A stretch of DNA of 64,000 nt from Desulfoplanes formicivorans (GTDB lineage Bacteria; Desulfobacterota; Desulfovibrionia; Desulfovibrionales; Desulfomicrobiaceae): assembly GCF_001748225.1 (NCBI RefSeq), contig NZ_BDFE01000015.1, positions 361,437-425,436 of the forward strand, in the 5' to 3' direction. The position numbers and the translations under genes are program-made. Positions 28,446 through 56,700 of the stretch are shown here, piece after piece (position 1 is the first letter of the stretch; every line of letters begins with the position of its first letter). Under the pieces are notes generated by a model. It had not been told where the DNA came from. It was given only the letters and a program-made list of their open reading frames with translations, and ran no database searches.

Positions 28446-28490
28446 GGTCAGGCAAATCGTTGAAACAAATTTGAACACAAGGAGGATCAA

Positions 28491-36451: not shown

Positions 36452-36807
36452 GGGGATTCCATAGGGTGGGAGGATTGGATGTTCTGTGTAACATTTTGTC
36501 TAACGTATTACATACCATACCTTTTTTGGGCATGCCAGCCCCATTTTCTCGGTATCTGTGGCTGTGAAGCAAGAATGATGTCTCTTTTTCACGGGGATCC
36601 CGCAGATGGAACAGGTTGGGACCACGTGGCCAGAACCATGCGTAATGTTTGAAGGCGAAAGTGGCCAGCCATCTCTGCTGTGATCATATCAATTTATTTT
36701 TATTGATAAATGGTTACGTTGCCGGTGTAAAACAAGTTACGAGTACTGTACCGTAGAACATCATGCATGTAAGGTCCAAAGTGTCGTATGACAGAACGGG
36801 AGTTGCC

Positions 36808-38256: not shown

Positions 38257-39440
38257 AGTTTTTTTCTGGATTACAATTGGTTGCAGTCATTCTTTTGGGA
38301 CTTCTTCTGACTTCATTGTGGAGTTGCCTGCCCGAGAATGAAAACAAGACGTCCAAGAAGGGGGCAATCCCCCCCGCTCCCATGGTGCTGGTGGACAAGG
38401 TGACGCCCGCTGACATTCCATTGCAGCGAACCTTCACGGGTCACGTGGAAGGAATACGCTCGGCAGAGGTTCGGGCCCAGGTTACTGGAATTCTTGAAAA
38501 ACGGTTGTATGACGAAGGCAAGAAGGTCAAGGCCGGGGATGTGCTTTTTGAGATTGATCCCTCTTCGTACCAGGCGGTGGTGGATCAGGCGGCTGCCAGG
38601 GTGGCAAGCATCAGGGCGCGGTTGGCCAGGGCCAAGCGGGATCTGGACCGGGCTCTGCCTTTGGCCGAAAGAAATTCCATCAGTCAGCGGGATCTGGATG
38701 CCGTGCAAACGGAATACGAGTCGTCCCGGGCGGGCCTTGCCGAGGCTGAAGCAGCCCTGCGGGCAGCACGCATCAATCTTGATTTGACCCGTGTCAAGGC
38801 TCCCATTGACGGATTCGCGAGCATGGCCCGCCACAATGTGGGCAGTCTCATCCAGGCTGGATCATCGCAGAGTCTGCTGACCACCATCCATGATGTGGAT
38901 ACCGTCCAGGTGGTCTTTCCGGTTTCAGATACGCAGGTGCGCCGTATTCAGGGGTATCTGGCCGATGGACGTGCTGTCATGAATACGCCCATCTCTGCCC
39001 ATCTTTTCATTGATGAGGAACATCCCTATCCTCATGCGGGCAATATGGTTTTCGGCAATCCGGTCATCAGCCGCGAAACCGGATGCATGATCGCCAAGGC
39101 GAGCTTTCCCAATCCTGAAAAAACGCTGCTGCCCGGGCAGGTGGTCCGGGTTACCCTGGATATTCTGACCTTCATCAATGCCCTTGCCGTTCCCGAGCAG
39201 GCCGTGCTGCAGGGACGTGACTCTGCCATGGTTATTGTCGTTGCCCCGGACGACACCACAAGGTTTAAGCCCATTGAAATCCTGGCACGGGTGGGCCGAT
39301 TGGTGCTGGTGGCGTCGGGACTCGAGGGAGATGAACGAATCATTGTGGAAGGGGTGAGAAAGGTGGGCCCCGGCATGAAGGTGAATCCCCGCATGGCCAA
39401 CCCTGCAGACCAGTCGGGAACAACCGGAACAAAGGTATAA
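38253..39440 (+). CDS. RND efflux periplasmic adaptor (membrane fusion protein)
   Basis: HlyD/AcrA-like: N-terminal TM/lipobox, coiled-coil hairpin and beta-barrel domains (VLFEIDPSSYQA..., INLDLTRVKAPIDG). Confidence 0.85.
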   Translation: MKFFSGLQLVAVILLGLLLTSLWSCLPENENKTSKKGAIPPAPMVLVDKVTPADIPLQRTFTGHVEGIRSAEVRAQVTGILEKRLYDEGKKVKAGDVLFEIDPSSYQAVVDQAAARVASIRARLARAKRDLDRALPLAERNSISQRDLDAVQTEYESSRAGLAEAEAALRAARINLDLTRVKAPIDGFASMARHNVGSLIQAGSSQSLLTTIHDVDTVQVVFPVSDTQVRRIQGYLADGRAVMNTPISAHLFIDEEHPYPHAGNMVFGNPVISRETGCMIAKASFPNPEKTLLPGQVVRVTLDILTFINALAVPEQAVLQGRDSAMVIVVAPDDTTRFKPIEILARVGRLVLVASGLEGDERIIVEGVRKVGPGMKVNPRMANPADQSGTTGTKV

Positions 39441-39444
39441 GGGT

Positions 39445-42400
39445 ATGGGAGAGTTCTTTTTTTTACGTCGTCCGGTACTGGCCATGGTAATCTCTCTGCT
39501 CATTGTCATCATGGGCTCCCTGGCCCTGCAGCGTCTGCCCGTGGCCCAGTATCCGGACCTGGTGCCTCCCACCGTATCTGTCACGGCCATCTATCCGGGT
39601 GCCAGTCCCGAGGTCATTTCCCAGACCGTGGCGGCTCCTCTGGAACAGGCGGTCAACGGTGCCAAGGATCTTTTGTATGTCCAGTCCACCTCCTCGGCCA
39701 GCGGGGTCATGTCCATGACAGTGACCTTTGCCCTGGGAACCGATCCCGAGGTGGCCAGCAATCGGGTCAGCAATCTGATCCAGACCGCCCAGGCAGGATT
39801 ACCTGAAGAGGTCCGCCGTCTGGGGGTCAGCGTGACCTCGGGTTCGGGATCTTTTTTGATGATTATCACCCTGTCCAGCCCTGATGGTCGTTATGACAGC
39901 CTGTTTTTGAACAATTATGCGGCGTTGAACGTGATCGATCGCCTCAAGCGCGTGCCCGGTGTGGCCTCGGCGGCGTCTCTCATTGCCGAGGAATATTCCA
40001 TGCGCATCTGGTTCGATCCGGCCAAGCTGGCCGCTTTCGGGTTGACCCCCCAGGATATTGCCAGGGCAATCCGCGAGCAGAATGCCCAGTATGCTGCCGG
40101 GACCATGGGCCTGCAACCAGCTCCGGATGATCTGAAAACAACCTGGCTGGTGAGTACGCAGGGACGCATGGCCACCCAGGAGGAATTCGGGGACATCATT
40201 GTCCGGGTGGATGAAACAAAGGGGATCATGCGGTTGCGGGACGTTGCGCGCATTGAACTTGGTGCCGCTGATTACGGGGTGCGCAGCAAGCTGAACGGCC
40301 AACCTGTTGCCGGAATCAGTATTACCCTCACCCCGGGAGCCAACGCCCTGCAGACCGCCCAGGACATCAGAGCCTCCATGGAGGAACTGAGTCGGGATTT
40401 TCCTCCTGGTGTGGAATACGCCATTCCCTACAATGTGACCACCTTTGTGCGTATTTCCATTGAGGAGGTGGTGCATACCCTCTTTGAGGCCATGATCCTT
40501 GTGGCCCTGGTCATCTTCATTTTTCTGCAGAATCTTCGCGCAACCCTCATCCCCTGCATTGCCGTGCCCGTGGCCATTGTGGGAACCTTTGCCGGCATGT
40601 ATGCATTGGGGTTCTCCATCAATACCCTGACCTTGTTCGGCATGGTGCTGGCCATAGGCATCGTGGTGGATGACGCCATCGTGGTCCTGGAAAATGTGGA
40701 GCGGATCATGCGTGACGAGCAATTGTCCCCCCGGGAGGCCACGTCCAAGGCCATGCGGGAGGTGACCGGGCCGGTCATCGCCATTGTCCTGGTCCTTTGT
40801 TCCGTATTTGTGCCGGTTTCCTTCATGGGAGGGATGACCGGAGAGATGTTCCGGCAATTCGGGATCACCATTGCCCTGTCAGTGACCATTTCCGGCATTG
40901 TGGCCCTGACCCTGACCCCGGTCATGTGTGCCTGGCTTCTCAGGCCGGGCCATGGACGCGAGAGATGGTTCACACGCATGTTCAACCGGATTTTTGACGG
41001 GCTGACCAGCGTTTATCTGGCAGGAGTTCGTCTTCTCCTGCGTTTTTCTCTGCTGGGAGTGGTGCTCCTGTGTCTTCTGGGCTGGGGCATGTGGGAACTG
41101 TTCCAAAGCGTACCCCAAGGCCTGGCGCCGGACGAGGACCAGGGCTACGTCATTGCCGTGGCCATGCTTCCTGAGGGAGCCACCATGCCCCGTACGGATG
41201 CAGCCCTGGATAGGCTGTCTTCGACCATGCTCAAGGATCCTTCGGTGGATGCCGTGCTGACCATCGCGGGTATGGATCTCCTTGGCGGACGGGGCACCGT
41301 GGGCAATGCGGGGGCTGCCTTTGTCATGCTCCGCCCCTGGGAAGAGCGGAGGACTCCGGATCAGTCCTCTTCGGCCATTGCAGGCAGGATTTTTGGCATC
41401 GGGGTGACCGACGGCATGCTCGCGGCCTTCAACCCTCCGCCCATCGTGGGGTTGAGCACCGTGGGCGGGCTGGAAGGATTTCTGCAAAATACCTCGGGGG
41501 CATCCATTGAGGAGATGGCGGCCCAGGCAGCGAAACTTTCTGCGGCCGCTGCTGCCAGGCCCGAGTTCAAGGGGGTGGGGAGCGGTCTGAATCTGGGAAC
41601 CCCCAAGGTCTTTCTCGCCCTTGACGTGGAAAAGGCCAAGCTCATGGATGTATCCGTGGCGGATGTTTACCAGACCCTGAGTGCCACGCTGGCCGGGACG
41701 TACATCAACGATTTTACCCTGTATGGCCGGGCCTTCAAGGTGTACATGCAGGCGGAATCCCGGTTTCGCACAAGTCCCGAGGATCTGGAGTCCATTTTCG
41801 TGCGCAGCCGCAGGGGCGCCATGATCCCCCTGGACAATCTGGTTTCCACCATGCCTACCAGCGGGGCCTTTGCCCTGGAACGCTTCAATGGTCTTCCGGC
41901 GGCCCGCATTTCGGGGCAGGCCGCTCCCGGATACAGTAATCTCCAGGCCATGAAGGCTCTGGAAGAGCTGGTGCGGACCGAGCTTCCCCCGGGATATTCC
42001 CTTGGCTGGAGCGGGTCTTCCTTTCAGGAAAAGGCCAGCGGCGGCACCAATTACCGGGCCCTTGTCTTGGGGTTGGGGCTGGTTTTTCTCATCCTGGCTG
42101 CCCAGTACGAGAGCTGGACCCTGCCTGCTGCAGTTATTCTGGCTGTCCCCTTTGCCCTTTTCGGGGCCCTGGTGACGATTTTTGCGGTGGGGTATGCCAA
42201 CGATATCTATGTGCAGGTGGCCATGGTCACCCTTATCGGTCTCGCGGCCAAGAATGCCATTCTTATTGTGGAGTTTGCGGCTGCTCAATGTGCGGCCGGG
42301 CGTTCTCCGGCCCAGGCGGCCCTGGAAGCGGCACAACTGCGATTTCGGCCCATTGTGATGACCTCTCTGGCCTTTATCCTGGGGTGTGTGCCCCTGGTCA

Positions 42401-42570
42401 TCTCATCGGGGGCCGGTTCGGGGAGCAGACATGTGCTGGGAAGCAGCGTTATCGGGGGGATGATAGCCGCCACGGTTATTTCGCCCCTGTTTGTGCCCTG
42501 GTTTTTCAAGGTTGTCATGAGCTGGAAACGATCGACTGCCACGGGGGCAGAACAGAAGAACACATCATAG
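39445..42570 (+). CDS. RND efflux permease (AcrB/HAE1 family)
   Basis: 1041 aa, 12 TM with two large periplasmic loops, typical AcrB N-terminus (FFLRRPVLAMVISLLIVIMG). Confidence 0.95.
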   Translation: MGEFFFLRRPVLAMVISLLIVIMGSLALQRLPVAQYPDLVPPTVSVTAIYPGASPEVISQTVAAPLEQAVNGAKDLLYVQSTSSASGVMSMTVTFALGTDPEVASNRVSNLIQTAQAGLPEEVRRLGVSVTSGSGSFLMIITLSSPDGRYDSLFLNNYAALNVIDRLKRVPGVASAASLIAEEYSMRIWFDPAKLAAFGLTPQDIARAIREQNAQYAAGTMGLQPAPDDLKTTWLVSTQGRMATQEEFGDIIVRVDETKGIMRLRDVARIELGAADYGVRSKLNGQPVAGISITLTPGANALQTAQDIRASMEELSRDFPPGVEYAIPYNVTTFVRISIEEVVHTLFEAMILVALVIFIFLQNLRATLIPCIAVPVAIVGTFAGMYALGFSINTLTLFGMVLAIGIVVDDAIVVLENVERIMRDEQLSPREATSKAMREVTGPVIAIVLVLCSVFVPVSFMGGMTGEMFRQFGITIALSVTISGIVALTLTPVMCAWLLRPGHGRERWFTRMFNRIFDGLTSVYLAGVRLLLRFSLLGVVLLCLLGWGMWELFQSVPQGLAPDEDQGYVIAVAMLPEGATMPRTDAALDRLSSTMLKDPSVDAVLTIAGMDLLGGRGTVGNAGAAFVMLRPWEERRTPDQSSSAIAGRIFGIGVTDGMLAAFNPPPIVGLSTVGGLEGFLQNTSGASIEEMAAQAAKLSAAAAARPEFKGVGSGLNLGTPKVFLALDVEKAKLMDVSVADVYQTLSATLAGTYINDFTLYGRAFKVYMQAESRFRTSPEDLESIFVRSRRGAMIPLDNLVSTMPTSGAFALERFNGLPAARISGQAAPGYSNLQAMKALEELVRTELPPGYSLGWSGSSFQEKASGGTNYRALVLGLGLVFLILAAQYESWTLPAAVILAVPFALFGALVTIFAVGYANDIYVQVAMVTLIGLAAKNAILIVEFAAAQCAAGRSPAQAALEAAQLRFRPIVMTSLAFILGCVPLVISSGAGSGSRHVLGSSVIGGMIAATVISPLFVPWFFKVVMSWKRSTATGAEQKNTS

Positions 42571-42767
42571 CGATCCCTCAAAGACCAATGGTCTGCAGGC
42601 GGAATGCATGAAAAGGAACCGAAATCGCATGAGGTGTGTAACCTGCACATATGCAGGTTACAAAAAAGTGGTCAGGAACGAAGCATGGTTCCTGCCGGGA
42701 CAAGGTACAGGCCGGTCCGGCTTTTCAGAATATCTGGACGTTTAGATGGATTCCCAAGAGGTTGTTC

Positions 42768-45700
42768 ATGACGAGATACGTTGCTGTTTTTTCCGGTATT
42801 GGAACCCAGTGGCCGGGGATGGGCCGCGAACTCATGGTTCAGGGGGGCGCATTTGCCGCAGGATTTCGTGAATTTGACCAGGCCTTTGCCCCCATGGCCG
42901 GCTGGTCTGTGGAACAGATGCTCTACACACAATCCGGTGACATCCGACCTGCCCATATGGGCCATCCCTGTGTACTGGCTGTGGAGTGCGGCCTGTTTCG
43001 TGCGTTGCAGGAGAGTGGTTTTGAGCCGGATATGATCATGGGGCACAGCGGGGGCGAAGTCACTGCGGCCTGGGCTGCAGGGGTGCTTTCGACAACCGAT
43101 GCGGCCAGGGTGGCTCTGGCGCACAGTCAGTTGCTGGTCCGGGTCAGCGGTCAAGGGCGGATGGCTTTTGTGGGACTGCCTGCTGACAATGTGGAGCGCA
43201 TGATTCAGCCGTATAACGATCGTGTGCAGATTGCGGCCATCAATGCCCCGTCGGGAACCGTGTGCAGTGGGGACCCGAAAGCGTTGCAGGCATTGGGGGA
43301 TGCCTGTCCTGCCCATGTCTTTTTCCGCATGCTTGCCGTGGATGTTCCCTTTCACAGTAAGGTCATTGAAGCACATCTAAAAGAGTTTGCCGAGTCTTTG
43401 GCCACGCTCACCCCGCAACCAGCCCGTATTCCCATCCTGTCCTCGCTGCACGGCAAAGTTGCCCGGCCCGGAGATTTTGATGCGGCCTATTGGTGTCGGC
43501 ACATTGGTGAACCGGTGCGTTTCGAGGCTGCCATGCGTTGTGCCCTGGATAGGGGCGCTGCCTGTTTTGTGGAAATCGCTCCCCATGCCGTGTTGCAGGA
43601 TTCCATGGCCGAGACCGCATCCGCCATGGGTCACAGGGTGGAAAGCACGGGAACCATGTGCCGGAATACGGACGCCAGCCAGACATTGCAGCAAGCCACG
43701 GACATCCTGAAGGGCTGGAAAGAGGCACCATCGGCATGTTCCGGTATCTCTGATGCCCATTTGGGACAGGCGGCAGACAAATCCCGGAGGCGGCGTCGCA
43801 GCGAGTTGAAAAAACTGATCCGCCAAGAGCTGAAACAGGTGCTGCCGGAGTGCGAGATGGGCGATGACGAGCCCTTCCGTACCCATGGTCTGACGTCATT
43901 GCTGGCAGTGCGTTTCTGTTCCGGCCTGGGCCAATCACTGGGACTTGCGCTGCCGGTTTCCACGGTGTTCAACCATCCCGACATCACCCGGTTGGCCGAT
44001 CATCTGTCATGTCTTGGTGATGACGTTGCAACCGGGTCCGGCGAGTCCGTCAGCTGTAAGCATCTGGAAGAACCGCTGGCCGTTGTGGGTGTGGGCTGCC
44101 GTCTGCCCGGCGGGATCAATTCCATGGATGAGTATTGGCGTTTCCTGGTTGACGGCAAGGATGCGGTTATTCCGGTGCCGCAGGATCGGTGGGATCGGGA
44201 GCGGTACTATGACCCGGATCGTAACGCTCCGGGCAAGATGTACACCTGTGAGGCCGCTTTTCTGACAGCTCCCAGTCCCCGTCTCCAGGATTTTGACGCA
44301 CATTTTTTCAATATATCCTCCCGTGAGGCGGCCCAGCTTGATCCGCAGCAGCGTCTGCTTCTTGAGGTAAGCTGGGAAGCTTTTGAGCACGCAGGTATCG
44401 ATCCCTTTGCCTGGCGCGGCAAGAATGTTGGCGTGTTTGTGGGTATGACCAACAACGAGTACAGCCACGCCCACCGTGAATCCTATGTGCGGGAACGCAT
44501 TGACGCCTATTCCCTCACCGGCACGACGCTGAGCGGAGCCTGTGGCAGAGTTTCCTATTATTACGGTTTTGAAGGACCCTGCTTTTCCGTTGATACGGCC
44601 TGTTCTTCGAGTATGGTTGCCCTGCATGCTGCCTGCCGGAGTCTGCGTCAGGGTGAATCCGACATGGCCCTGGTGGGGGGGGTGACCCTGATGCTCACGC
44701 CGGATCTGCACATTTGCTTCAGTAAACTCGGGGCTATCAGTCCGGACGGACGAAGCAAGGCCTTTGATGACAGCGCAGATGGTTATGGCCGGGGAGAGGG
44801 TGCCGTGGTCGTGCTTTTGAAGCGGTTGAGGGATGCCCAGAGGGACAAGGATCGTATTCTGGGACTGGTCCGGGGTACGGCCCTGAATCAGGATGGCAAG
44901 AGCAATGGTCTGACGTCCCCCAATGGTTTGTCACAGCAGAAGGTCATTGCCCAGGCGTTGCGTGATGCCGCCCTGCGGCCCGAAGATGTCAGCTATGTGG
45001 AGGCCCATGGTACGGGCACGGCTCTTGGCGATGCCATTGAGCTCGAGGCCCTTGCGGATGCCTATCGGCCCAGTCCGGGCACGCTGCTGCGCATAGGATC
45101 TGTCAAGGCCAATATCGGGCATCTGGAGCCGGTTTCCGCCCTTGCCTCCCTGGCCAAGCTCATGTTGTGCCTGGAGCATGGGGCTCTCCCGGCAAATATT
45201 CATATCAAGACTCCCAATACCCGCTTTGACTGGCAGGGACGGGGCGTGGAGGCACCGCGGACATTACAGCCCTGGGAGGGTGAACATCCGCGCCGTGCCG
45301 GGATGAGTTCTTTTGGTTTTTCCGGGGTCAATGGTCACGCCATTATCGAGGAATATGTGGAGCCTGCGGTTGAGGAATCCACACAGGAGCCATCGGCCTT
45401 TCTGCTCCTGCTTTCAGCCAAGACAGAGGAAGCCCTGCGGGATCTGGCCCAGGCAACCGCCCTTGAGGTACAGGATATGACGCCGCATCACCTGGCGGCC
45501 CTGTGCCGCAGTGCCGCGTGCCGGAGGCACCATTTTGCCTGGCGGGTGGCCGTTGTGGGCAGTACCCCCGGCGAGGTGGCGGAACAGTTGCGAACGGCCA
45601 TGCCTGTGCGGGCAGCAGCACAACCCGAGACAATGGGGTTGCTGTTTACCGGGCAGGGTTCGCAGTATCCGGACATGGGACGCTCCCTGTTTGCCATGTA

Positions 45701-48700
45701 TCCGGTCTTTCGCAAGGCACTGGAGGAATGTGACCTTCTTCTTCAAGCCCATGATTTTGATTTGCTGCAGGCGATCTATGGCGGCATGTCGGCAGAGGAG
45801 CTGGCTCGTACGGAGTATGCCCAGCCGGTTATAGCCTCGGTGTCGTATGCTCTCTGGCGTTTGTGGGAATCTTTTGGCCTGGGTTTTGATTATGTGGCCG
45901 GGCACAGCATTGGTGAATACCCGGCCGCTGTGGCCTCCGGGGTGATGCGCCTGGAAGACATGCTTGTTTTGGCACTTCATCGGGGACGGTGCATGGCCCA
46001 GGCTCCGTCAGGAGGTATGGCCGCGGTCTTTGCCTCCGAGGATGAGGTGGCCGGATTGCTGGCCGGGCACCCGCAGATCTGTATTGCAGCGATCAATGCT
46101 CCTGTAAGCCTGACGGTTTCCGGGCCCCAGGCCGCCCTGGCTGCCTTTCTCAAGGATCTGAAAGATCGCGGTGTGGCGTATCGGGAACTGCGTGTATCCC
46201 ATGCCTTTCATTCACCGGATATGGACAAAGCAGCCAAGGCCTTTGAAGGTCCGCTGCAGGAGGTGGAGCTGGCCCGGCCAACACGCATGGACATGATTTC
46301 CACGGTCAGCGGGCAGATGGCTTCCCTCGAACTGACACGTTGGACCTATTGGCGTGATCAGATTGTCGCGCCGGTTCGGTTTTTCAGCGCCGTGCAGACC
46401 ATGAGCGAGCAGTGTTCTCTGGCCGTTGAGGCCGGTCCATCCACGGCATTGTCCGGACTGGTCTGGCAATGTGGCCTCACGTTGCAGTGTTTCCCTACCT
46501 TAAGCCCCAAGCAGGACGGATTGAGGTCCCTGTTCGGGGCCATGGCCAGTCTGTATGGTGAGGGTGTGGTCCTGAACTGGGATGAAGTGTTTGCCTCGTT
46601 TCCTGACCAATATGTGCCCCTGCCCGGATATCCCTGGCAGCGTCAACAGCATTGGATGGATGTGCAGGTGGATCCGCCGTCGGGGTTTGTCCGGAGTGAC
46701 CACGTGCCGGGCCACCGTCTGGACAGCCCGGCGTTGGGGGATAGCGCTGTCTTTGTCATGGATTTTTCCGAGACCGGTCCCGGATTCGTGCAGGAACATG
46801 TCATTTTCGGCAAGGCCATCAGTCCTGCTGCCGGTCACATGGCCATGATCCTGGCCGCAGTGCGGGAATTGAGGGGCACGGAATGCTGTCAGCTGGGCAA
46901 CGTGGATTTTCTCAGCCCGCTGGTGGTGGAACCGGGGCAGACCCGGCACGTGCAGGTGATTATCGAGACCCCGCAGGCTTCCGAGAGCCGGTTTCGTCTT
47001 GTGAGCCGACAGGGGGAGGAAGACTGGCTGACCCATTGTACCGGCACGGTGATTTTCCAGCCGGGACCGGAATCCGTTCCCGTGCGCAAACCAGGGCAGT
47101 TGTTCGCGCATCGGGAAACCAAAACCGCCTTTTATGACCGTTTCCTGGGACAGGGATATGAAGTGGGGCCCGGTTTTCAGCGTATCGAAGATATTTCGGT
47201 CCGGGATGGCGAGTCCATGTGCCGGGTACAGGCCCGGCGTGGCGATCCCGGCGAGGCCGGGCATGTGATCTACCCCGGAGCTCTGGATGCCGTGCTGCAG
47301 ACCATCCTGCCGCCTTTTTTCCACGAACTGGCCGATACCATGATGACCGAGGAGGCCTTGCTCATCCCGCTGCATGTGGAACGGTTGAGCCTGTGGCGAC
47401 CGGTACCCGAGGCCTTGTGGTGCCATGCCCGGGCCAGACGGGGATCCGGAGATGCAACCCTGGAGGGCGGTACTCTTGCCATGGATGACAAGGGACAGGT
47501 GGTCATGGAGCTGTCCGGATTCGTGTTCCGCATGACCGATAGGGCCACCCTGTACCGCCAGATGCACAGTGATCCCCTGCAACAGGTTTATGTGCAGCAA
47601 TGGGATGACGCGCAGCTGCCAAAGGCCGGTTCCGGGCAGGTGTATGTGGCATCGCTGGGCCGAGCTGAAACAGGGGCTCGTCTGGCCGAGGTCCTTGGCG
47701 CCCATGTTCTGCCGACATCAGGCAGGGAATTGGCCCGGGCCCTGGCTGATGTGGATACTTCAGGCGGTCATCTGCTGCTGGTACATGGTCCTTGTTCCGA
47801 CGTGGATGATCTGGCCGCAGGGGAAATACGGGTCTGTCAGGATATGCTGGTTGCGTTGCAGCAGGCCGTATCCTTTGGATTGCGCGTGCATGTGATCACC
47901 AGCGGGGTGATGAAGGTGCTGGAAGACGATGAAGTGCAGCCATCCGGGGCAGGATTGTGGGGTGTTGGAGGCAGTTTCGCCCTGGAGCATCCGGATCTCT
48001 GGGGTGGTTGTGTGGACATGCCCGGTACGGCGTGGAGCGACGAGGACATGCAGCTCTGTGCCAGGCTGTGTCAGGCCGAATCAGTGCAGGATCACCGGGC
48101 TGTACGTCATGGTCGTGTATATGCCCAGTCATTGGTACACCTCAAGTCGGACCGTCAGGCAGATGCCGTCCCGTTGTCCGGAACGCATGTGATCAGTGGC
48201 GGATCCGGTTCCCTTGGGCTGCATCTGGCACGGTGGCTTGGGGACAAGGGCGCCGAGGCCGTGGCCCTGATGTCCCGTTCAGGAATCCGTTCGGAATCCG
48301 GGCGTCAGGCCCTGGAGGATCTGCGTCAAAAGGGGGTGCGTGTTTTTGATCTGCAGGTGGACGTGACCGATGTGCTGCAGGTTGAGGCGGCCTTGACCGG
48401 TTTGCGACAGGAGGCTCCCCCCCTGCGTGGAGTCTATCATGCGGCCGGTCTTCTGGATGACGGAGTGATCATGGAGATGACCCCAAAGCGTATGCACAAG
48501 GTCATGGAGCCCAAAATTACCGGAGCCGTTAATCTGCACCTGGCCACAAGGGATGATGAACTGCAGCATTTTGTTCTCTATTCCTCGGCCGGAACCCTGC
48601 TCGGAGCTCAGGGACAAAGCAACTATAATGCGGCCAATCTTTTTTTCAACGTGTTTGCCTGGTGGCGCCAGCAGCAGGGATTGGCGGGTAACAGTGTGTG

Positions 48701-49343
48701 CTGGGGGCCATGGGCCGAGGGAGGCATGGCCGTGGCAACCAAGCGCCGAGGGGCGCATCTGGAACGTCAGGGCATTGTTTCCCTGCAAGCTGACGATGCT
48801 CTGGCAGCATTTCAGGCCGCATCTCCCCTGGCACCGTGTTTTGGGGTCATGCATATGGACTGGAAACGTTTTGCACAGGCCCGGTCTGAATCCCTGCAAC
48901 AGGGTTCGAACGGCTATTTCGCGTCCCTGATATCCACCCAATGGTTGCACCAGGATGACATGCAAAACGTTGAGGCTGTATTGGGCGATGCGACCGATGC
49001 GGCGAGCCTGCTGGAAGGTTTGCGCCTTGTGGCCTGCCGGTTGATCGGGGTTAGCGATCCTGCCCATCTGGCCGTGGAGGTGCCCTTGCTGGAGCAGGGG
49101 TTTGATTCCCTCCTGGCCGTGGAATTCCGTAACATTATCGGTCGGGAGCTGGGTCGGACCATACCCGTATCCCTGATTTTTGAATATCCGACCCTGGAAA
49201 AGATAGCGGGATGGCTGAGGGGGAGCAACGGTTCGGAAACAGAGGAGCAGATACCCGTGGAAATCGCAAACGTGGACCATTTTGCCGACCGGGACCGGCA
49301 GGCCTTGCTGAACGACATTGACAGTTTGCTGGGGGAAGATTGA
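42768..49343 (+). CDS. Type I polyketide synthase: loading AT-ACP, then KS-AT-DH-KR-ACP
   Basis: Loading AT (GHSGGE), ACP-like (HGLTSLLAV), KS (DTACSSSMVALH...EAHGTGTALGD), AT (GHSIGE; HAFHS suggests a malonyl-specific AT), DH (HVIFGKAISP = HxxxGxxxxP), KR (GGSGSLGLHLARWL) and ACP (GFDSLLAVEF). Start taken at ATG 42768; the ORF track extends to 42651. Confidence 0.9.
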   Translation: MTRYVAVFSGIGTQWPGMGRELMVQGGAFAAGFREFDQAFAPMAGWSVEQMLYTQSGDIRPAHMGHPCVLAVECGLFRALQESGFEPDMIMGHSGGEVTAAWAAGVLSTTDAARVALAHSQLLVRVSGQGRMAFVGLPADNVERMIQPYNDRVQIAAINAPSGTVCSGDPKALQALGDACPAHVFFRMLAVDVPFHSKVIEAHLKEFAESLATLTPQPARIPILSSLHGKVARPGDFDAAYWCRHIGEPVRFEAAMRCALDRGAACFVEIAPHAVLQDSMAETASAMGHRVESTGTMCRNTDASQTLQQATDILKGWKEAPSACSGISDAHLGQAADKSRRRRRSELKKLIRQELKQVLPECEMGDDEPFRTHGLTSLLAVRFCSGLGQSLGLALPVSTVFNHPDITRLADHLSCLGDDVATGSGESVSCKHLEEPLAVVGVGCRLPGGINSMDEYWRFLVDGKDAVIPVPQDRWDRERYYDPDRNAPGKMYTCEAAFLTAPSPRLQDFDAHFFNISSREAAQLDPQQRLLLEVSWEAFEHAGIDPFAWRGKNVGVFVGMTNNEYSHAHRESYVRERIDAYSLTGTTLSGACGRVSYYYGFEGPCFSVDTACSSSMVALHAACRSLRQGESDMALVGGVTLMLTPDLHICFSKLGAISPDGRSKAFDDSADGYGRGEGAVVVLLKRLRDAQRDKDRILGLVRGTALNQDGKSNGLTSPNGLSQQKVIAQALRDAALRPEDVSYVEAHGTGTALGDAIELEALADAYRPSPGTLLRIGSVKANIGHLEPVSALASLAKLMLCLEHGALPANIHIKTPNTRFDWQGRGVEAPRTLQPWEGEHPRRAGMSSFGFSGVNGHAIIEEYVEPAVEESTQEPSAFLLLLSAKTEEALRDLAQATALEVQDMTPHHLAALCRSAACRRHHFAWRVAVVGSTPGEVAEQLRTAMPVRAAAQPETMGLLFTGQGSQYPDMGRSLFAMYPVFRKALEECDLLLQAHDFDLLQAIYGGMSAEELARTEYAQPVIASVSYALWRLWESFGLGFDYVAGHSIGEYPAAVASGVMRLEDMLVLALHRGRCMAQAPSGGMAAVFASEDEVAGLLAGHPQICIAAINAPVSLTVSGPQAALAAFLKDLKDRGVAYRELRVSHAFHSPDMDKAAKAFEGPLQEVELARPTRMDMISTVSGQMASLELTRWTYWRDQIVAPVRFFSAVQTMSEQCSLAVEAGPSTALSGLVWQCGLTLQCFPTLSPKQDGLRSLFGAMASLYGEGVVLNWDEVFASFPDQYVPLPGYPWQRQQHWMDVQVDPPSGFVRSDHVPGHRLDSPALGDSAVFVMDFSETGPGFVQEHVIFGKAISPAAGHMAMILAAVRELRGTECCQLGNVDFLSPLVVEPGQTRHVQVIIETPQASESRFRLVSRQGEEDWLTHCTGTVIFQPGPESVPVRKPGQLFAHRETKTAFYDRFLGQGYEVGPGFQRIEDISVRDGESMCRVQARRGDPGEAGHVIYPGALDAVLQTILPPFFHELADTMMTEEALLIPLHVERLSLWRPVPEALWCHARARRGSGDATLEGGTLAMDDKGQVVMELSGFVFRMTDRATLYRQMHSDPLQQVYVQQWDDAQLPKAGSGQVYVASLGRAETGARLAEVLGAHVLPTSGRELARALADVDTSGGHLLLVHGPCSDVDDLAAGEIRVCQDMLVALQQAVSFGLRVHVITSGVMKVLEDDEVQPSGAGLWGVGGSFALEHPDLWGGCVDMPGTAWSDEDMQLCARLCQAESVQDHRAVRHGRVYAQSLVHLKSDRQADAVPLSGTHVISGGSGSLGLHLARWLGDKGAEAVALMSRSGIRSESGRQALEDLRQKGVRVFDLQVDVTDVLQVEAALTGLRQEAPPLRGVYHAAGLLDDGVIMEMTPKRMHKVMEPKITGAVNLHLATRDDELQHFVLYSSAGTLLGAQGQSNYNAANLFFNVFAWWRQQQGLAGNSVCWGPWAEGGMAVATKRRGAHLERQGIVSLQADDALAAFQAASPLAPCFGVMHMDWKRFAQARSESLQQGSNGYFASLISTQWLHQDDMQNVEAVLGDATDAASLLEGLRLVACRLIGVSDPAHLAVEVPLLEQGFDSLLAVEFRNIIGRELGRTIPVSLIFEYPTLEKIAGWLRGSNGSETEEQIPVEIANVDHFADRDRQALLNDIDSLLGED

Positions 49344-52252
49344 TGGATCGTGCACGGGAAGAGCAGTACAAGACTGCATTACGCAGGGCGCGGGATCTCA
49401 TTCATGAGCTGCAGGGAGAGGTGCAGACCATGCATGAACCCGTGGCCATCATAGGCATGTCCTGCCTTTTTCCTGGTGATGCCCACCGGGATGCGGACAC
49501 GCCGGACCTCTTTGGCCATCTGCTGCGTTCCGGATACGATGCGGTTGTCCGGGTGCCCGAAGAGCGTGCAGCATTGTGGCAAAGCCGTCATGACCAAGAC
49601 GCAGCTCCGCGTGTACCCGGCCTTGAGTATGCGGCCCTGCTCAAACATGATCTTTTTGCCTTTGACCGGGAGCTTTTCGGACAGATCCCTGCGGAAGCGG
49701 CCATGAATGACCCTCAGCACCGTCTGTTGCTGGAATTGTCATGGCAGGCCCTGCTGGATGCTGGCTTGCTGCCGTCGGCTCTGGCCGGTGAGGACGTTGG
49801 CGTTTTCACAGGCAAGACCGGCACGGAGTACCTTTTCGACCAGTTGGGTACGGACCGCAATTCCGCAGATGATCCCTATGTCATGACCGGGAACATGAAC
49901 AGTGCCCAGGCCGGACGCATTTCCTATTTTTACGATTGGAACGGGCCCTGCCAGGCCGTGGAATCGGCGTGTTCCACTGCCCTGCTTGCCGTGATGAATG
50001 CCGTGAACAGTCTGCGGGCCGGTGAATGTACGCTGGCCATGGTTGGATCGGTCAATCTGCTGCTGGGGCCCACGCCCAGTCATTGGTTGAACGCCATGCA
50101 TTCCCTGGCGCCCGACGGACGGTGCAAGGCCTTTGGAAACAGCGCAAACGGCTTTGGCCGAGGTGAGGGCGGCGGCGTTCTTGTGCTGGAGCGATTATCC
50201 GATGCCCAGCGTCAGGGGCATCGCATCCATGCCGTGATTCTGGGCGGAGCTGTGGGCTCGGACGGCAGGAGTGCGGGATTCACCGTCCCCAGTGCGGCCG
50301 GGCAACGGCACGTTATCTCGCGGGCCCTGGCCAATGCGGGCATACAGCCTGCCCAGGTGGGGTTTGTGGAAACACATGGAACAGGCACCCCTGTGGGAGA
50401 TCCCATTGAGGTGGAGAGCCTGGCCCGGGTTTATGGATCACGCAAGAACAAACTCCTTATCGGGTCGGTCAAAAGCAATATCGCCCACCTGGAAGCAGCA
50501 GCGGGCATGGCCGGACTGATCAAGGCCGTACTTGCGGTACGCGACGGCGTGATACCCGCCAGTCTGCATTGCACCCCGCTGAACGGTTTGCTGGTGTGGG
50601 ATCAACTGCCCGTCCAGGTTGTGGCAGAGACCCGGCCCTGGCCTGAAGGGTATGAACGGCGCATCGCCGGTATTGACAGCTTCGGGATCACAGGAACTCT
50701 TGTACATCTTTTGGTGGCTCAGCCGCCGGAGCCCGTGTCTGACAAGGCCGGGACCACGAGGGCAGAGCCGGATTACCGGGTACTGCCCTTGTCCGCGCGC
50801 TCTGCTGCCGGTCTGAGTCGTCTGGCTGCTGGTTGTGCACGGCTGCTGGAACAGGGGGAGGATTTTTCGGCCATGTGCACGGCTGCTGCTGCGCGGCCCC
50901 AGGAACCGGAACGCCTGGCCCTGGTTGCGGCTGATGCACAAGAAGCCTTGACCGGTCTGCGCGCCTTTGTTGCCGGCAAGAAAAAGCGGTGTGTTGTTCG
51001 GGGAAGGCAGGGAAAAACCAGGCCCGGCATCCTGTTTCTGTGCAGTGGTCAGGGCTCGCAACAGGGCGGCATGGGCCGGGAGCTGGCCGCCTTGTTTCCG
51101 GTTTTTCGCCAAGTGCTGGAGCGGTGTGATGAGCTGGCTGCGCCGCGTCTGGGGTATTCCCTGCTGGAGGTCATGTTTGCCGAGAACGATCCCCGACTCC
51201 AGGATATCCGTTGTGTTCAGCCGGCCATTTATGCCCATCAGGCGGCTCTGGCCGCTCTCTGGCGGGAATGTGGCGTGCAGCCTGACGCTGTTTTCGGACA
51301 CAGTATCGGAGAATATGCAGCCGCTCATATTGCAGGGGTGTTGGACTTGGAGACGGGTCTGGACATAACCCTGACCCGTGGTGAGCTGGCAGCTTCCATC
51401 CGTGACCAGGGAGCCATGGCAGCCGTTCTGGGGAGCGAAAGCGAAGTGGCCGACGTCCTGAGCACGTTTCCCGGGGTGTCCCTGGCAGCGGTCAATGGCC
51501 CTGCGACCGTGACCATTGCCGGAGAACAGGGCCAGGTGGATGATGCCGTGCAGAGTCTGCGCAAACGCGGTCTGGAGAGTCGGCCTCTTCCCGTGTCCCT
51601 GGCATTTCACAGCCCCATGATCGAACCCATGCTTGATGATTTCCGAACCTTTTTGCGCGGCAAAACCTTTTCTGCGCCCAGGTTGCGCATGCTCTCGGGG
51701 TGCAGTGGCGAGTATCTGTCTGCAGATACGGACTGGGCGGATTATTTTTGTCGCCAGACGCGCAGGCCCGTACGTTTTCTTGATGCCATGCTCCACGCCC
51801 GGGAGGATGTCTACATCGAGCTTGGTGCCAGCCCGATTCTGACCTCATACGGTCGTCAGTGCCGGGAAGATGGCATATGGCTTTTTTCCCAGAATCCCGG
51901 CGCGGTGATGCAACCTCTGGCTCAGAGTCTGGCCCGCCTTTATGTCATGGGCTGTGAACCGGATTGGGGCTGGGAGGCTGACGGTGTGCTGCGACCTGAA
52001 GCCATGCCGGTTTATCCTTTTGAACGGGAACACCTGCTGCCTGATTTTGTGCAGCATCCCGTGCCCAGGGCACCTGGAAACAAAGGGCCGATCATGCCGG
52101 ATTCTTCCTTCAGCCCTGAAAAGATGGCTGGACATGGAGGGGGAGATGTGTCTGCGCAACTGGCCTTGCTGCAACAGGAAACATTCCGGCAGGTCTGCCA
52201 GATGCAGCAGGAGTTTTTGGGTGCCGGTTCTGATGGAGAAAAAGGGGCATGA
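49340..52252 (+). CDS. Polyketide synthase KS-AT didomain protein without an ACP
   Basis: KS (ESACSTALLAV, ETHGTGTPVGD, SNIAHLEAAAG) plus AT (GHSIGEYAAAHIAG, LAFHSP). The ~100-aa tail has no carrier-protein motif. The start overlaps the PKS1 stop (ATGA). Confidence 0.9.
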   Translation: MMDRAREEQYKTALRRARDLIHELQGEVQTMHEPVAIIGMSCLFPGDAHRDADTPDLFGHLLRSGYDAVVRVPEERAALWQSRHDQDAAPRVPGLEYAALLKHDLFAFDRELFGQIPAEAAMNDPQHRLLLELSWQALLDAGLLPSALAGEDVGVFTGKTGTEYLFDQLGTDRNSADDPYVMTGNMNSAQAGRISYFYDWNGPCQAVESACSTALLAVMNAVNSLRAGECTLAMVGSVNLLLGPTPSHWLNAMHSLAPDGRCKAFGNSANGFGRGEGGGVLVLERLSDAQRQGHRIHAVILGGAVGSDGRSAGFTVPSAAGQRHVISRALANAGIQPAQVGFVETHGTGTPVGDPIEVESLARVYGSRKNKLLIGSVKSNIAHLEAAAGMAGLIKAVLAVRDGVIPASLHCTPLNGLLVWDQLPVQVVAETRPWPEGYERRIAGIDSFGITGTLVHLLVAQPPEPVSDKAGTTRAEPDYRVLPLSARSAAGLSRLAAGCARLLEQGEDFSAMCTAAAARPQEPERLALVAADAQEALTGLRAFVAGKKKRCVVRGRQGKTRPGILFLCSGQGSQQGGMGRELAALFPVFRQVLERCDELAAPRLGYSLLEVMFAENDPRLQDIRCVQPAIYAHQAALAALWRECGVQPDAVFGHSIGEYAAAHIAGVLDLETGLDITLTRGELAASIRDQGAMAAVLGSESEVADVLSTFPGVSLAAVNGPATVTIAGEQGQVDDAVQSLRKRGLESRPLPVSLAFHSPMIEPMLDDFRTFLRGKTFSAPRLRMLSGCSGEYLSADTDWADYFCRQTRRPVRFLDAMLHAREDVYIELGASPILTSYGRQCREDGIWLFSQNPGAVMQPLAQSLARLYVMGCEPDWGWEADGVLRPEAMPVYPFEREHLLPDFVQHPVPRAPGNKGPIMPDSSFSPEKMAGHGGGDVSAQLALLQQETFRQVCQMQQEFLGAGSDGEKGA

Positions 52253-53001
52253 TCACCCTGTTTTTGCTTGGTCATGCAGGCGGAAGTGCTTCCATGTATC
52301 CGGCGCTTTTCCCGAATTTGTCATCCCGGGTACAACTCGTACCTCTGGATCTGCCCGGGCACGGCCAGCGCATGGGCGAGGCCCTGTTGGACAATATCCC
52401 GGATATGGTTGCCGATTTGCAGTGTCAGGTGGAGGCCTATGTCGACGGCAACAAGAACGATTATGCGTTGTTCGGCCACAGCATGGGCGGTATCCTGGCC
52501 TATGCATTGACCACGGCCTTGCAGGAAACGGCACGCATGATGCCGCAGCACGTGATTATTTCCAGTACCTGTACGCCGGGACGTCACCATATTGCGCCCC
52601 AGTTGCCCTTTCTTCCCGATGAGGAGTTGTGGGTAAAAAGCGCCGGCTATTTCGGTGGGATACAGGATCAGATTGTTGCCAGTCGCGAGTTGATGACCTT
52701 GTTTGTTCCCATTTTGCGCACCGATCTGAAGGCCGTTTTGGACTGGTCTCCCTCGCCTTGTGAGGCCGTGGACGTGCCCATGACCGTCGTGTGTGGTGAC
52801 AGGGATATTGTTGATGAGGCTGACGTTCTGGTTTGGAGGCGTTATACCACGGAAGATTTTGTTTCATCAGTCCTGCCGGGAGGGCATTTTCATGTTCTGG
52901 AACGGCCATCCGGAGTGGAGACGGTTCTGAAAAACACCCTTGGACAATATGTTTCAGGGCATGGGAATTGTTCTGCCGCATATGATCCCCGGGAGTCATG
53001 A
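52249..53001 (+). CDS. Type II thioesterase (alpha/beta hydrolase)
   Basis: 250 aa with GHSMGG nucleophile elbow and TEII-like length. The start overlaps the PKS2 stop (ATGA). Confidence 0.85.
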   Translation: MITLFLLGHAGGSASMYPALFPNLSSRVQLVPLDLPGHGQRMGEALLDNIPDMVADLQCQVEAYVDGNKNDYALFGHSMGGILAYALTTALQETARMMPQHVIISSTCTPGRHHIAPQLPFLPDEELWVKSAGYFGGIQDQIVASRELMTLFVPILRTDLKAVLDWSPSPCEAVDVPMTVVCGDRDIVDEADVLVWRRYTTEDFVSSVLPGGHFHVLERPSGVETVLKNTLGQYVSGHGNCSAAYDPRES

Positions 53002-53087: not shown

Positions 53088-53789
53088 TCAAGCCGTGTGG
53101 CCTGGAGGTTTTTTTATGCCCGAAACCAGGTCCTCGGCTGTGGGCAGAAGCAAGGGCATGACTGATGGGGGCGGCGGTGTGCCCACTGTCAGCCAGTATC
53201 CCTTTTCCAATGGATAATGGCGCCAGAACCAGGACAGATTTTTGGCTGTCAGGGGACATGTGAGTGTCTCCATGTCCAGGGGGTTGGTCAGCAAGCCCGT
53301 GCCCAGGGCCTTGAGAATGGCTTCCTTGATGGTCCAGCGTCTGATGAGATCCGATGCGGGATCTGGCTGTTGGCGGATGACCTGCAGTTCCGTTGGGGTG
53401 AAGGCAATGGCAAATTCTTCCACTTGCAGCGGGCGTACCTTTTCCACATCCACGCCGATACACGACTGGTCGGCACTGCCTATGGCACAGACCGCCCAGC
53501 GGCCGGAATGACTGAGACTGATGGGCCGCCCACTGCCCGCAAGTATTGGTCTGCCCTTGGACTCATGACCCAACGCGGCCAATCCCCTGTCCATGTTCCA
53601 TCCCTCAAGATATTGCATGCCGTAAGCCACGAGCAGCCTGGCCAGCATCCGTTGCAACCGATCACTCCTGCGCCGGTTGCGACGGATAAAACGGCTGTCG
53701 GCGTCCGGGATCAGGGAGAGGAACGTGGTTTCGTCTACCCTGTCCATGTGCTCGACAGGTGCAGCCAGGAGCAGGGAGGTGGTCTTCAT
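53088..53789 (-). CDS. Sfp-type 4'-phosphopantetheinyl transferase
   Basis: PPTase motifs IGVDVEKV and WTIKEAILKALGTG. ATG at 53787-53789 overlaps the NRPS TGA (ATGA coupling). The ORF track start at 53810 is probably an over-extension. Confidence 0.8.
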   Translation of the reverse strand: MKTTSLLLAAPVEHMDRVDETTFLSLIPDADSRFIRRNRRRSDRLQRMLARLLVAYGMQYLEGWNMDRGLAALGHESKGRPILAGSGRPISLSHSGRWAVCAIGSADQSCIGVDVEKVRPLQVEEFAIAFTPTELQVIRQQPDPASDLIRRWTIKEAILKALGTGLLTNPLDMETLTCPLTAKNLSWFWRHYPLEKGYWLTVGTPPPPSVMPLLLPTAEDLVSGIKKPPGHTA

Positions 53790-56700
53790 GCGGTTCTTCC
53801 CGGGGTGCAAAGAGCGATGATTTCATGAAGATATGTTTGCATCTTTTCAAGCAGATCTTCCAGATACCGGGGAGAGAACTCGGCAGGATGTGCATCCACG
53901 TTGAGTCTGAGCCGATGGTCCTGGACCAGACCGGTCACTGCCAGTTTGGCCTGTTGGGGAAAATCGTTGTCAACATCACTGGAAAATCCAAGTTCTTCCA
54001 GAGTGAACGGGCCGCTGGTGCTGCCTGAGACGTCGCCCAGATAGTTGAACAGGACGTCGGCTTCGTAGTCCTGCAATGCTTCAATTTCGGCTAGATACCG
54101 TAAGACCCCGAAGCCCAGCCCCTTGGACGGAACAGCACGGAGGGAACGGTGCACGGAGCGGATGGTGGCAGGGATATCCGTGGCCGCGCACAGCACTGTT
54201 GGATGCACCGTGGTGAACCAGCCCACAATGCCCCCAAGGGAAAGATTTTCAAACAATTCCTGGCGTCCGTGGCCTTCCAGATCCACCAGGAGTTTCCGGG
54301 TGCCGCTTTGTGATTTCACGGCCAGCAGCAAAGCCGTGAGCAGCAGATCATTGATATTGGTATCATAGGCCTTGTGGCATGGGCCCAAAAGAAGCCGGGT
54401 ATTTTTTTTGTCCAGAATCAGATCTCTGGTGATGAGTTCGCAACTGCGTCGTGTCTCAACGGTGCCCTGTACAGGTATCCCTGAGGGTCTGGACGCGAGC
54501 TGTTTTTTCCAGAAATCCCTTTGCTGCTGTACCTCCGGACTCTGTGCATGCTTGATCAGGCGTGCGGCCCATTGGGCAAAGGAACCATGCTGAGCCAGGG
54601 GGGCACTGGGAAGTTCCACGGGAAGATCGTGGTCCACACAGTGCAGGGCTGCAGCCAGATCGCCCAGGATGAGGTGCCAGGACACTCCGTCCACAACAAG
54701 GTGATGGATGATGAGGGCCAACCGGTCCGGTTCCTTGTCTTTCCGGCCTGGGACCAGAACAGCCCAGGCCAAAGGCCCCCTGGCCAGGTCCAGGTTGTGG
54801 GCAATGTCGGCAGCCACCTGTTGCAACTCGTCCGCAGTACAGGTTCGCAGACCAAACCTGTTGTGACCGCTGGTAAGGATATGTTGTTGCCGCTGACCCT
54901 TTTCCAGGGGATAGACAGCACGCAGCATGTCGTGGCGTCGGCTGAGTTCGGCAAGTGCTTTTTTGTATACGGTGGCCGGTCGGCAACGATCCGTGCGCAG
55001 AATCACGGATTGAAAAAACTGTGCGTGATTCATGTCCAGGGAAAAGAGCCACCGCTGGATCGGAGTGAGGGGAACGTTCTGGATGCTTGGTCGGGGAGCC
55101 GCTGCAATCTCCTCGATGATGGCCGCCAGGCTTCTTACATGTGGATCCTTGAGCATGGAAAAGTGGTTGCCCGGGCAGTAACGTTCCTCCATGCCGCCCA
55201 GGGCCAGATTTTCCCAGCCCAGGGGGCGGGTCTCAAAGGACTGGTAGGAGCCGTTCACCGGATCCTTGGGACGGATACATGTCATGGGTATGGGCAGGGG
55301 CTGAGGTTCATAATGGGCCCACGCCAGAAGCTGGGCCTGAAGAAAGGCATGCAGGCGCTTCATTGATGGCACGGATGGAGCACCATCTTCATAACCGGTC
55401 AGGGCTTCCAGTCCGACAGCAATGGCCTGTTCAGGCACTTCCTGAGGAATCTGGTCTCTGGGGACGGGGTTTCCAAGGTCATCGTCCAGCAGATGGTCTC
55501 GGGTGTTCAAGGAGATCACGCCGCGTACCGGGCAGTCGGCCTCGAGCAACTGGCGGGCAATTTCCCAGGCGGTCATGCCGGCCATGCACAGGCCCACCAA
55601 CAGGAAATCTCCCCTGGGAAACCGTTGGATCAGGCTCGGCACATAGCGTGCAGCCACCTTTTCCAGCTGCGTGTCCGGTTGCTGGCCATGATCAATGCCG
55701 AAGGGAGGGAGGACAAAAACAGGCCGTTCCTTGGGCAGGGCATTGATCAGATGGTGATAGCAGCGCACAGACCCACCGGTCGTATGGACCAGGACAAGGG
55801 GACATCCGCTGCCTTCGCGCACGGGTATGAGAAATGGCTGTTTCTCTTCCTCACCTTCCTGTAGGTCGCGTATACGACGGGCCAAGGTGCGTATGGTCAC
55901 GCCGTTCATGAGTTCGGAAATGGGTATACTGCAGTTCAGATTGGTTTCCACGTGGGCAATCAGGCGCATGGCCTTGAGGGAATCCCCGCCCATTTCAAAA
56001 AAATCGTCATCCAGGAAAACCGTGTCCATGCCCAGCACATCCAGCCAGATACGGGCCAGGGCCAACTCCAGGGCTGTTGATGGCGGTTCACCCTCGGTAT
56101 GCTGTGGCCGGACGAGTTCAGGCAGGGCTGCCTGGTCGATTTTTCCGTTGGTATTCAGGGGCAAGGCTTCCATGCGAATGAATAGGGCAGGGATCATATA
56201 TGCGGGCAGTTTGCGACGCAGCAGAGCCCGCAATGCGGTTTCGTCCCATTTTTCGGCCACAACATAGGCGCAGAGTACAACATCACCGTTGGCATCCGGT
56301 CGGGCCAGGACGGCTGCCGAACGGATCTCCGGCCGGGCCAGCAGAATCTGCTCGATTTCCGCCGGTTCGATACGGAAACCGCGGATACTGAGCTGATTGT
56401 CGATTCTTCCCAGAAATTCCATGGTGCCGTCGGGAAGACGACGGCAAAGGTCCCCGGTACGGTACATGCGGGCGTATTCCCCCTCCTTGTCCCTGGCAAA
56501 GGGGTTGGGGACGAAAGCATGGGTCGTCTGATCCGGCTGGTTGCGGTAGCCGCGGGCCAGGGCCTTTCCCGACAGATGCAGTTCTCCGGGCAGGCCGTCG
56601 GGCTGGAGATGACCATGGCGATCCAGAATGAGACATTGGGTGCCGGCCACGAATCGGCCGATGGGGATGGGTTTGTTTTCCTCCTGCACCAGATGGTGCG

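Follow-up and report, generated by a model that had tools for sequence, protein, structure and literature searches.

The nonribosomal peptide synthetase (NRPS) gene at the end of a 64,000-nucleotide stretch of the Desulfoplanes formicivorans genome (contig NZ_BDFE01000015.1, positions 361,437 to 425,436; this whole stretch is the window, numbered here from its first letter) closes with an unusual succession of domains. Its terminal ~770 residues are a termination unit in which a carrier (T) domain is followed by a thioesterase (TE), with a predicted cysteine nucleophile, and then by an epimerization (E) domain. We favor, with moderate confidence, the reading that this T–TE–E unit would epimerize the C-terminal residue of the product and that its TE would release a beta-amino-acyl tetrapeptide, probably as a macrolactam. 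NRPS assembly lines usually terminate in T–TE, T–R, T–C, or T–E–TE, and the host in this case, a member of the Desulfovibrionales, is a sulfate reducer available in culture.

The T–TE–E termination unit

The gene is one uninterrupted reading frame on the minus strand, ending in a TGA stop codon (53786-53788), and its domains within the window, as recognized by Pfam, are (C)-A-T-C-A-T-C-A-T-TE-E, where C and A are condensation and adenylation domains. In the last 769 residues, Pfam matched PP-binding (58.8 bits, residues 13-75), Thioesterase PF00975 (52.8 bits against a cutoff of 26.4, residues 99-329, covering profile positions 2-224 of 226), and Condensation PF00668 (159.3 bits, residues 339-764). 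By these scores, the succession of a T domain, an alpha/beta-hydrolase, and a member of the condensation superfamily exists as described and lies far beyond what chance would produce. All the peptide strings quoted by the sequence-only reading of this DNA were found on the minus strand in a single frame (Table 1), and the protein does run on past the TE into a full-length, apparently functional member of the condensation superfamily, as that reading had described. The interval it gave (53786-55700) ends at the stop codon but omits the first ~100 nt of the TE and the entire T domain, and it lacks a strand.

The same reading had called the last domain a C domain, and this part did not hold. When compared by phmmer to all PDB chains, the ten best matches were all E domains (4e-57 to 1e-43), including those of PvdL, TycB3 (6TA8), bacitracin synthase 3, TycA (2XHG), and GrsA (5ISW), while matches to C domains only began at 5e-12, so that more than 30 orders of magnitude separate the two groups. 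NCBIfam model TIGR01720, the name given by JGI to many homologues with canonical E domains, matched at 1.4e-19 (70.5 bits, just below its cutoff of 74.2). By its sequence, the domain is a complete E domain, with all seven motifs (E1 to E7) and the catalytic residues, and it is predicted to be an epimerase. His132, Asp136, Glu274, and Asn351 (numbered within the domain) are invariant in 11 members of the family described below and in five canonical E domains. The possibility of a degenerate remnant lacking HHxxxDG had also been raised, but the motif is present as HHLVVDG. Because the last domain is an E domain, the arguments built on terminal C domains that release or cyclize a peptide do not apply here. 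What sets this E domain apart is its position, since it is not directly behind a T domain; the whole TE (~250 aa) intervenes, and the E domain makes up the 436 residues that follow it. An AlphaFold2 (AF2) model of T–TE–E had a mean predicted local distance difference test score (pLDDT) of 81.6 and a predicted template modeling score (pTM) of 0.70, with a pLDDT below 50 in the linker between T and TE and of 75 to 83 at the short TE–E junction, which suggests that TE and E may form a rigid didomain.

The preceding domain is a genuine type I thioesterase, with Cys in the position of the nucleophile and His in that of the general base. Its best solved relative by sequence is the TE of AB3403 (4ZXH; 2e-14), with LVGLCMAG aligned to LGGWCFGG and Cys falling on Cys; the same column holds the nucleophilic Ser in the tautomycetin TE (GHSSGG) and in the Pks13 TE (GWSLGG). 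A structure was modeled with AlphaFold2 from 11 family sequences (pLDDT of 86.8, pTM of 0.88). In the model, a strand (residues 82-86), Cys87, and a helix (89-102) make up a nucleophile elbow; strand 109-113 (beta6) is followed by Asn114, strand 188-193 (beta7) by Lys-Asp195, and strand 219-224 (beta8) by Gly-Asn-His228. The alignment and the model thus confirm the earlier proposal that a Cys takes the nucleophile position in a TE after the last T domain, and place Cys87 at the elbow. All of the top 50 Foldseek matches of the model were NRPS or polyketide synthase (PKS) thioesterases, among them AB3403, Vlm2, GbnD6, Pks13, SkyXY, RedJ, the tautomycetin TE, DEBS, and NocB, the nearest structures being AB3403, Vlm2, Pks13, SkyXY, and NocB. 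Cys by itself is not what distinguishes this TE, as it is found at the nucleophile position in ~54 of the ~190 aligned TE domains of relatives; the distinguishing feature is a combination of traits.

One of these traits is the residue at the position of the triad acid. The TE sequence SLNTR aligns with MIDTR of AB3403, which puts Asn opposite the triad Asp. AB3403 combines Cys with Asp at position I (after beta6), a position that holds the triad Asp in nearly all NRPS TEs (PMC11298585). Asn114, together with Cys87, Arg116, and His228, is invariant within the TE–E family. An Asp or Glu is found after beta7 in most members, but not in all (the column of Asp195 holds Ala in P0129 and P0135), and Glu205 is nearly invariant. 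A thiol nucleophile has less need of a charged partner in the triad, papain with its Cys-His-Asn being an example, and an invariant Asn114 would fit this lower requirement. The TE may therefore use a papain-like Cys-His-Asn triad on an alpha/beta-hydrolase scaffold, something that would also be compatible with an E domain shared among modules, as discussed below.

The last T domain is of the GGDS type (GGDSL). The Asp of this motif is found in the last T domain of 10 of 11 TE–E family members and in 64 of 65 T domains that precede a canonical E domain, versus only 4 of 112 that precede ordinary TEs, where GGHS is the rule (85 of 112).

A small family with the same ending

T–TE(Cys)–E defines a small, uncharacterized, conserved family of ~15 sequences of hybrid PKS-NRPS synthetases, found in Desulfovibrionales, "Deltaproteobacteria", and metagenome-assembled genomes (MAGs) of Accumulibacter. 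Among the 153 nearest TE-containing proteins, only 13 have any domain behind the TE, and all 13 combine Cys, Asn114, and an E domain; the other 140 have nothing similar to an E or C domain after the last TE match, and most end within ~35 aa. Since so few carry a domain after the TE, the order can be considered unusual, as had been suspected from the sequence. A word-indexed search with the TE alone retrieved one fragment only, and an exhaustive search of 1.84 billion representatives was used instead. It recovered the T–TE–E ending in P0122, P0123/P0269, P0124, P0125/P0270 (from a Candidatus Accumulibacter MAG), P0126, P0129, P0135/P0271, and P0186. The same ending is found in a betaproteobacterial MAG (P0001, 40% identical over 98% of the length) and a deltaproteobacterial MAG (P0002, 64% identical), a MAG of Desulfovibrionaceae (L001) carries a collinear NRPS with T–TE–E (56%), and three further contigs (L007-L009) came to light among 241 million metagenome records. 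Two other hits were unrelated to this architecture: a Pseudomonas sequence from the genome scan (L002, 28% identity over part of the E domain) and one from the metagenome scan (L010, 46% over 46 residues). In one metagenomic contig with the same ending (L003), a frameshift in the TE lid at ~9.6-10.0 kb splits the NRPS into proteins of 3791 aa and 495 aa (P0003), which may reflect either an assembly error or a pseudogene.

The resemblance extends to the other end of the protein. Full-length homologues start with ACP-aminotransferase-C (ACP, acyl carrier protein) and contain four A domains. In all seven members with an N terminus on record, the first domain is an aminotransferase or, in the four or five whose start is intact, an ACP with the aminotransferase behind it, and no full-length member has more or fewer than one E domain, always at the C terminus. 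One full-length homologue, P0122 (TE 67% identical), has the domain order ACP–aminotransferase–C–A–T–(C–A–T)x3–TE–E, with PP-binding and Aminotran_3 matches at its N terminus.

Several known systems share part of these features. The most similar by both sequence and structure is AB3403 of Acinetobacter baumannii (PDB 4ZXH/4ZXI, product unknown; Foldseek 3.9e-17, TM score of 0.74), with Cys in the same column, although it ends at the TE (C-A-PCP-TE, PCP being its carrier domain), has Asp instead of Asn at position I, lacks the E domain, and is only ~22% identical. Canonical T–E–TE endings, of which ACV synthetase is an example, contain the same three domain types. In three of them the E domain is 34% (P0004, P0005) or 30% (P0008) identical to the one described here, but it precedes the TE, the T domain is fused directly to it, and the nucleophile is Ser (GHSFGG/GYSFGG). 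NocB-TE and SkyXY-TE (6OJC/6OJD, 7CRN), structural neighbors with TM scores of 0.67 to 0.81, also combine epimerization of the C-terminal residue with release; there, however, a Ser-TE epimerizes by itself with no E domain, whereas here a separate E domain is fused behind a Cys-TE. In the mycosubtilin/iturin MycA and microcystin McyE systems, a KS-AT (ketosynthase-acyltransferase) is likewise followed by ACP-aminotransferase-C-A-T and the free amine can close a ring, but these systems have an ordinary Ser-TE and place E domains inside the modules, unlike the four modules and TE(Cys)–E ending of this family from anaerobic Desulfovibrionales and MAGs. A domain behind the TE is not in itself unprecedented, as ObiF1 carries an extra one, MbtH-like, at that place (PMC10510592, PMC11298585). 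In the open-access literature, we found no description of the TE–E order, nor of NRPSs from Desulfoplanes or Desulfovibrionaceae.

Gene neighborhood and adenylation domain codes

The gene that follows the NRPS encodes an Sfp-type 4'-phosphopantetheinyl transferase (PPTase), found at the same position in L001, L003, L004/L005, and L008. No downstream NRPS was found at any of the loci read, the PPTase being the next gene in each, and for these two reasons the T–TE–E unit can be said to terminate the assembly line. The idea of an acyl transfer to a downstream partner, put forward from the sequence alone, thus finds no support in the neighborhood. Synteny with the P0122 locus includes the NRPS, the PPTase, the convergent type II TE, the KS-AT, and the PKS (Table 1), and the synteny of PKS, KS-AT, and type II TE is also seen in L004/L005. 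Six proteins encoded in the window are identical to database sequences, five of them under D. formicivorans accessions (within GAU08599-GAU08624); the sixth, the PKS, clusters with an entry of 2191 aa (GAU08622). An efflux system of the resistance-nodulation-division (RND) type adjoins the PKS and possibly exports the product.

Table 1. Location of the NRPS termination unit, its motifs, and neighboring genes within the 64,000-nucleotide window
Feature	Position	Strand	Remarks
NRPS, C-terminal 3404 aa	53786..64000	-	Frame continues past window end at 64000
Last carrier (T) domain, core FFEMGGDSLKAM	55871..56059	-	Phosphopantetheine Ser codon 55979-55981
String MGGDSLKAM	55993-55967	-	
GGDS sites of T domains	62162-62164, 59072-59074, 55988-55990	-	
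Internal C domains	~61.9-60.6 kb, 58.86-57.53 kb	-	
Type I thioesterase (alpha/beta hydrolase)	55109..55801	-	Pfam, AF2 model, alignments
String PLVLVHTTGG	55801-55772	-	
String GLCMAG	55594-55577	-	
Predicted TE nucleophile Cys, in GLCMAG	55586-55588	-	Codon TGC
Asn at the canonical triad-acid position after beta6, in SLNTR	55505-55507	-	
Asp two residues after beta7, in RPKDP	55262-55264	-	
TE His after beta8, in GNHFSM	55163-55165	-	
Epimerization (E) domain	53804..55081	-	PDB phmmer, motifs, TIGR01720
E1 PIQRW; E3 NDLLLTAL; E5 GWFTTVHP; E6 GLGFGVLRY	in E domain 53804..55081	-	
String IIHHLVVDG	54712-54686	-	
E2 HHLVVDGVSW, catalytic His	54701-54703	-	
E4 EGHGRQ, Glu	54275-54277	-	
E7 FNYLG, Asn	54044-54046	-	
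Sfp-type 4'-phosphopantetheinyl transferase	53088..53810	-	Overlaps NRPS stop
Type II thioesterase, stand-alone	52249..53001	+	Convergent with NRPS
KS-AT protein, 970 aa	49340..52252	+	Without carrier domain
Type I PKS, AT-ACP-KS-AT-DH-KR-ACP	42651..49343	+	
RND efflux system: outer-membrane factor, membrane-fusion protein, AcrB-type pump	36763..42570	+	Adjoins PKS

The PKS begins with an AT-ACP loading didomain, and the KS-AT protein (49340-52252) has no carrier of its own. The carrier that it lacks would seem to be the ACP at the N terminus of the NRPS, as seen in P0122, with the module split over two convergent genes. A KS-AT combined with ACP-aminotransferase reproduces the way in which the mycosubtilin, iturin, and microcystin assembly lines are primed with a beta-amino acyl group. 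Four A-domain codes are shared across the family (DAWYLGTVTK, DVWWTGNxTK, DAYFTACVCK, and, in most members, DAWNxxE[IV]MK), as read against a GrsA reference, for which GrsA's own code comes out as DAWTIAAICK. With conserved codes, the members would be expected to make related products, predicted to be beta-amino-acyl tetrapeptides.

Directly upstream of the NRPS in L004 (6341-9922) and L005 (2147-5806) is a gene for a protein of ~1200 aa that combines a PF00144 beta-lactamase fold with an autotransporter; it adjoins a DUF697 gene, and the matching region of D. formicivorans lies past the window end. Among the PF00144 enzymes are a peptide cyclase (SurE) and a prodrug peptidase (ClbP), and this protein might process the product outside the cell. 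In the window, genes for an ABC substrate-binding protein, an ABC ATPase, and a Band_7/SPFH protein (27261-32540, plus strand) flank the block of MFS, RND, and PKS genes, while the two ABC genes in L001 (12785-16371) and the Band_7 gene in L008 (9463-10575) immediately follow the PPTase. It looks as if the PKS-plus-efflux block were a variable insert, or as if the cluster had been rearranged between relatives. Upstream of the RND genes, a protein of 813 aa (33172-35613, plus strand) has an MFS domain at residues ~421-745 and no Pfam match in its first ~400 residues, and an open reading frame at 35384-36196 has no Pfam match either. Further upstream (13527-17390, plus strand) is a protein of 1287 aa with pentapeptide repeats (~430-500) and a class I adenylate cyclase (N-terminal and catalytic domains), with a long N-terminal region without a Pfam match.

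Proposed mechanism and alternative explanations

Putting these data together, the PKS genes would make a short beta-keto acyl chain bound to the ACP at the N terminus of the NRPS, and the aminotransferase domain would turn it into a beta-amino acyl starter, the logic known from mycosubtilin and iturin. Four amino acids would be added next. On the last T domain, the E domain would equilibrate the C-terminal residue between L and D, acting ahead of the transfer to the TE, after which the Cys-TE would accept the peptide as an acyl-thioester, more reactive than an oxoester. Release would most plausibly take place by attack of the free beta-amine, giving a 16-membered macrolactam, the alternative being hydrolysis to a linear peptide. 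The rationale offered for Cys in SulM and ObiF is precisely the greater reactivity of the thioester, and changing the Cys to Ser leads to hydrolysis (PMC11298585). Such a reactive intermediate would be well suited to closing a ring that is small and strained. Seen in this way, the unit would be functionally a T–E–TE ending in which TE and E have been swapped, and not a case of release mediated by a C domain.

Several points weigh against this proposal. The N terminus of the NRPS lies beyond the window, and its ACP-aminotransferase start is taken from the collinear homologues. Both the order of events (E acting before the TE) and the release chemistry (lactam versus hydrolysis) are inferred. 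The last A-domain code, DAWNAGEIMK, fits no assignable specificity, and neither do the other codes. The TE has three candidate triad partners, with Asn114 invariant, Asp195 partly conserved, and Glu205 nearly invariant. Finally, every T domain of this NRPS is of the GGDS type, including those that precede C domains, so that the motif is not a specific mark of a T–E partnership here.

This last observation leads to the alternative that survives best, although we still regard it as unlikely: the single terminal E domain would not only, or not at all, be the partner of the last T domain, but would serve several or all of the GGDS T domains of the ~5400-aa synthetase, feeding D-configured donors to the internal DCL-like C domains, which lack E domains of their own. 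The one C-terminal E domain per full-length member and the uniform GGDS motif speak in its favor, as do the three internal C domains, which score best against C domains located directly after an E domain (median of 187 bits versus 102 for C domains after a GGHSL-type T domain, both reference sets being small and defined by context only). Their nearest database relatives, including those retrieved with the third C domain, sit in E-C or N-terminal contexts. In addition, dual E/C domains have been linked to LGGHSI-type T domains and not to GGDSI (PMC10212144), whereas here the motif is GGDS. However, dual E/C domains fall into one clade with DCL domains and are indistinguishable from them here, and the E domain would have to reach, sterically, T domains located more than 3000 residues away. 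We know of no precedent for a shared terminal epimerase. Two readings account for these data: the internal C domains may have a dual E/C function, or the terminal E domain may work for more than one module.

An enzyme of the ObiF/SulM type, with the Cys-TE closing a beta-lactone or beta-lactam on the C-terminal residue as in obafluorin and sulfazecin, had been suggested by analogy, and we consider it improbable. The likeness is in the Cys nucleophile and in the absence of Asp at position I, and Asp195 lies right after beta7, the "position II" of SulM and ObiF1 (PMC11298585). Yet P0129 and P0135 lack this acid, which the family as a whole therefore does not conserve, and an Asp is also found there in AB3403, whose triad acid is at position I. 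The motif is G-L-C-M/L-A/G/S/T-G in all members, and the Cys on which the analogy was based is common among relatives. Alignment of the family profile with the SulM TE by hhalign gave a probability of 1.3% over the N-terminal half only, too weak to locate the triad residues of the C-terminal half (with a SulM sequence taken from OCR text), and neither ObiF nor SulM appeared among the top 50 Foldseek matches. The last A-domain code is also unlike the Thr, Ser, and Dap codes known to us, and the domain appended here is an E domain. SulM-type TEs have been recognized by a Gln-Cys-Asn motif, not found in this family, and by an Arg-rich pocket, and a beta-amino-acyl tetrapeptide is a longer substrate that exceeds the products of <370 Da considered there (PMC11298585).

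About equally improbable is an E domain that survives as an inactive remnant or plays a purely structural or docking role, with the TE alone setting the release. E domains are normally placed directly after a T domain, unlike here, but nothing else supports this idea directly, and the catalytic His, Asp, Glu, and Asn and the seven motifs are invariant among members only 30-57% identical to this protein over T–TE–E, with the domain at full length in every member. The conservation is also the reason for giving practically no weight to an assembly or annotation artifact (chimeric contig or fused gene call), for which only the L003 frameshift in the TE lid could be invoked.

Before that last case in rank, and with very low probability, comes a T–TE(Cys)–C ending in which a terminal C domain would carry out release, cyclization, or transfer to a downstream acceptor. 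The PF00668 match (159 bits) and the HHxxxDG motif gave rise to it, but PF00668 includes E domains too, ten E domains outrank the first C domain in the PDB, EGHGR and FNYLG (which C domains lack) are present together with the TIGR01720 match, and no acceptor-carrying protein is encoded downstream; at the level of sequence, this explanation is refuted. As for the artifact, the uninterrupted frame comes from the genome of a cultured isolate, and more than 12 independent contigs (32-67% identity), which stem from different projects, carry this order as well.

Prediction tools would misread T–TE(Cys, Asn)–E, as in the terminal C domain called here at first. The architecture ties together three questions, namely, the reason for Cys in some TEs, whether a triad acid can be dispensed with when the nucleophile is a thiol, and how the stereochemistry of the C-terminal residue is set at release. 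If a single E domain did serve all modules, assembly lines would be operating in a new way. D. formicivorans is in culture and belongs to a group with almost no known natural products, which puts both the product and its enzymology within experimental reach.

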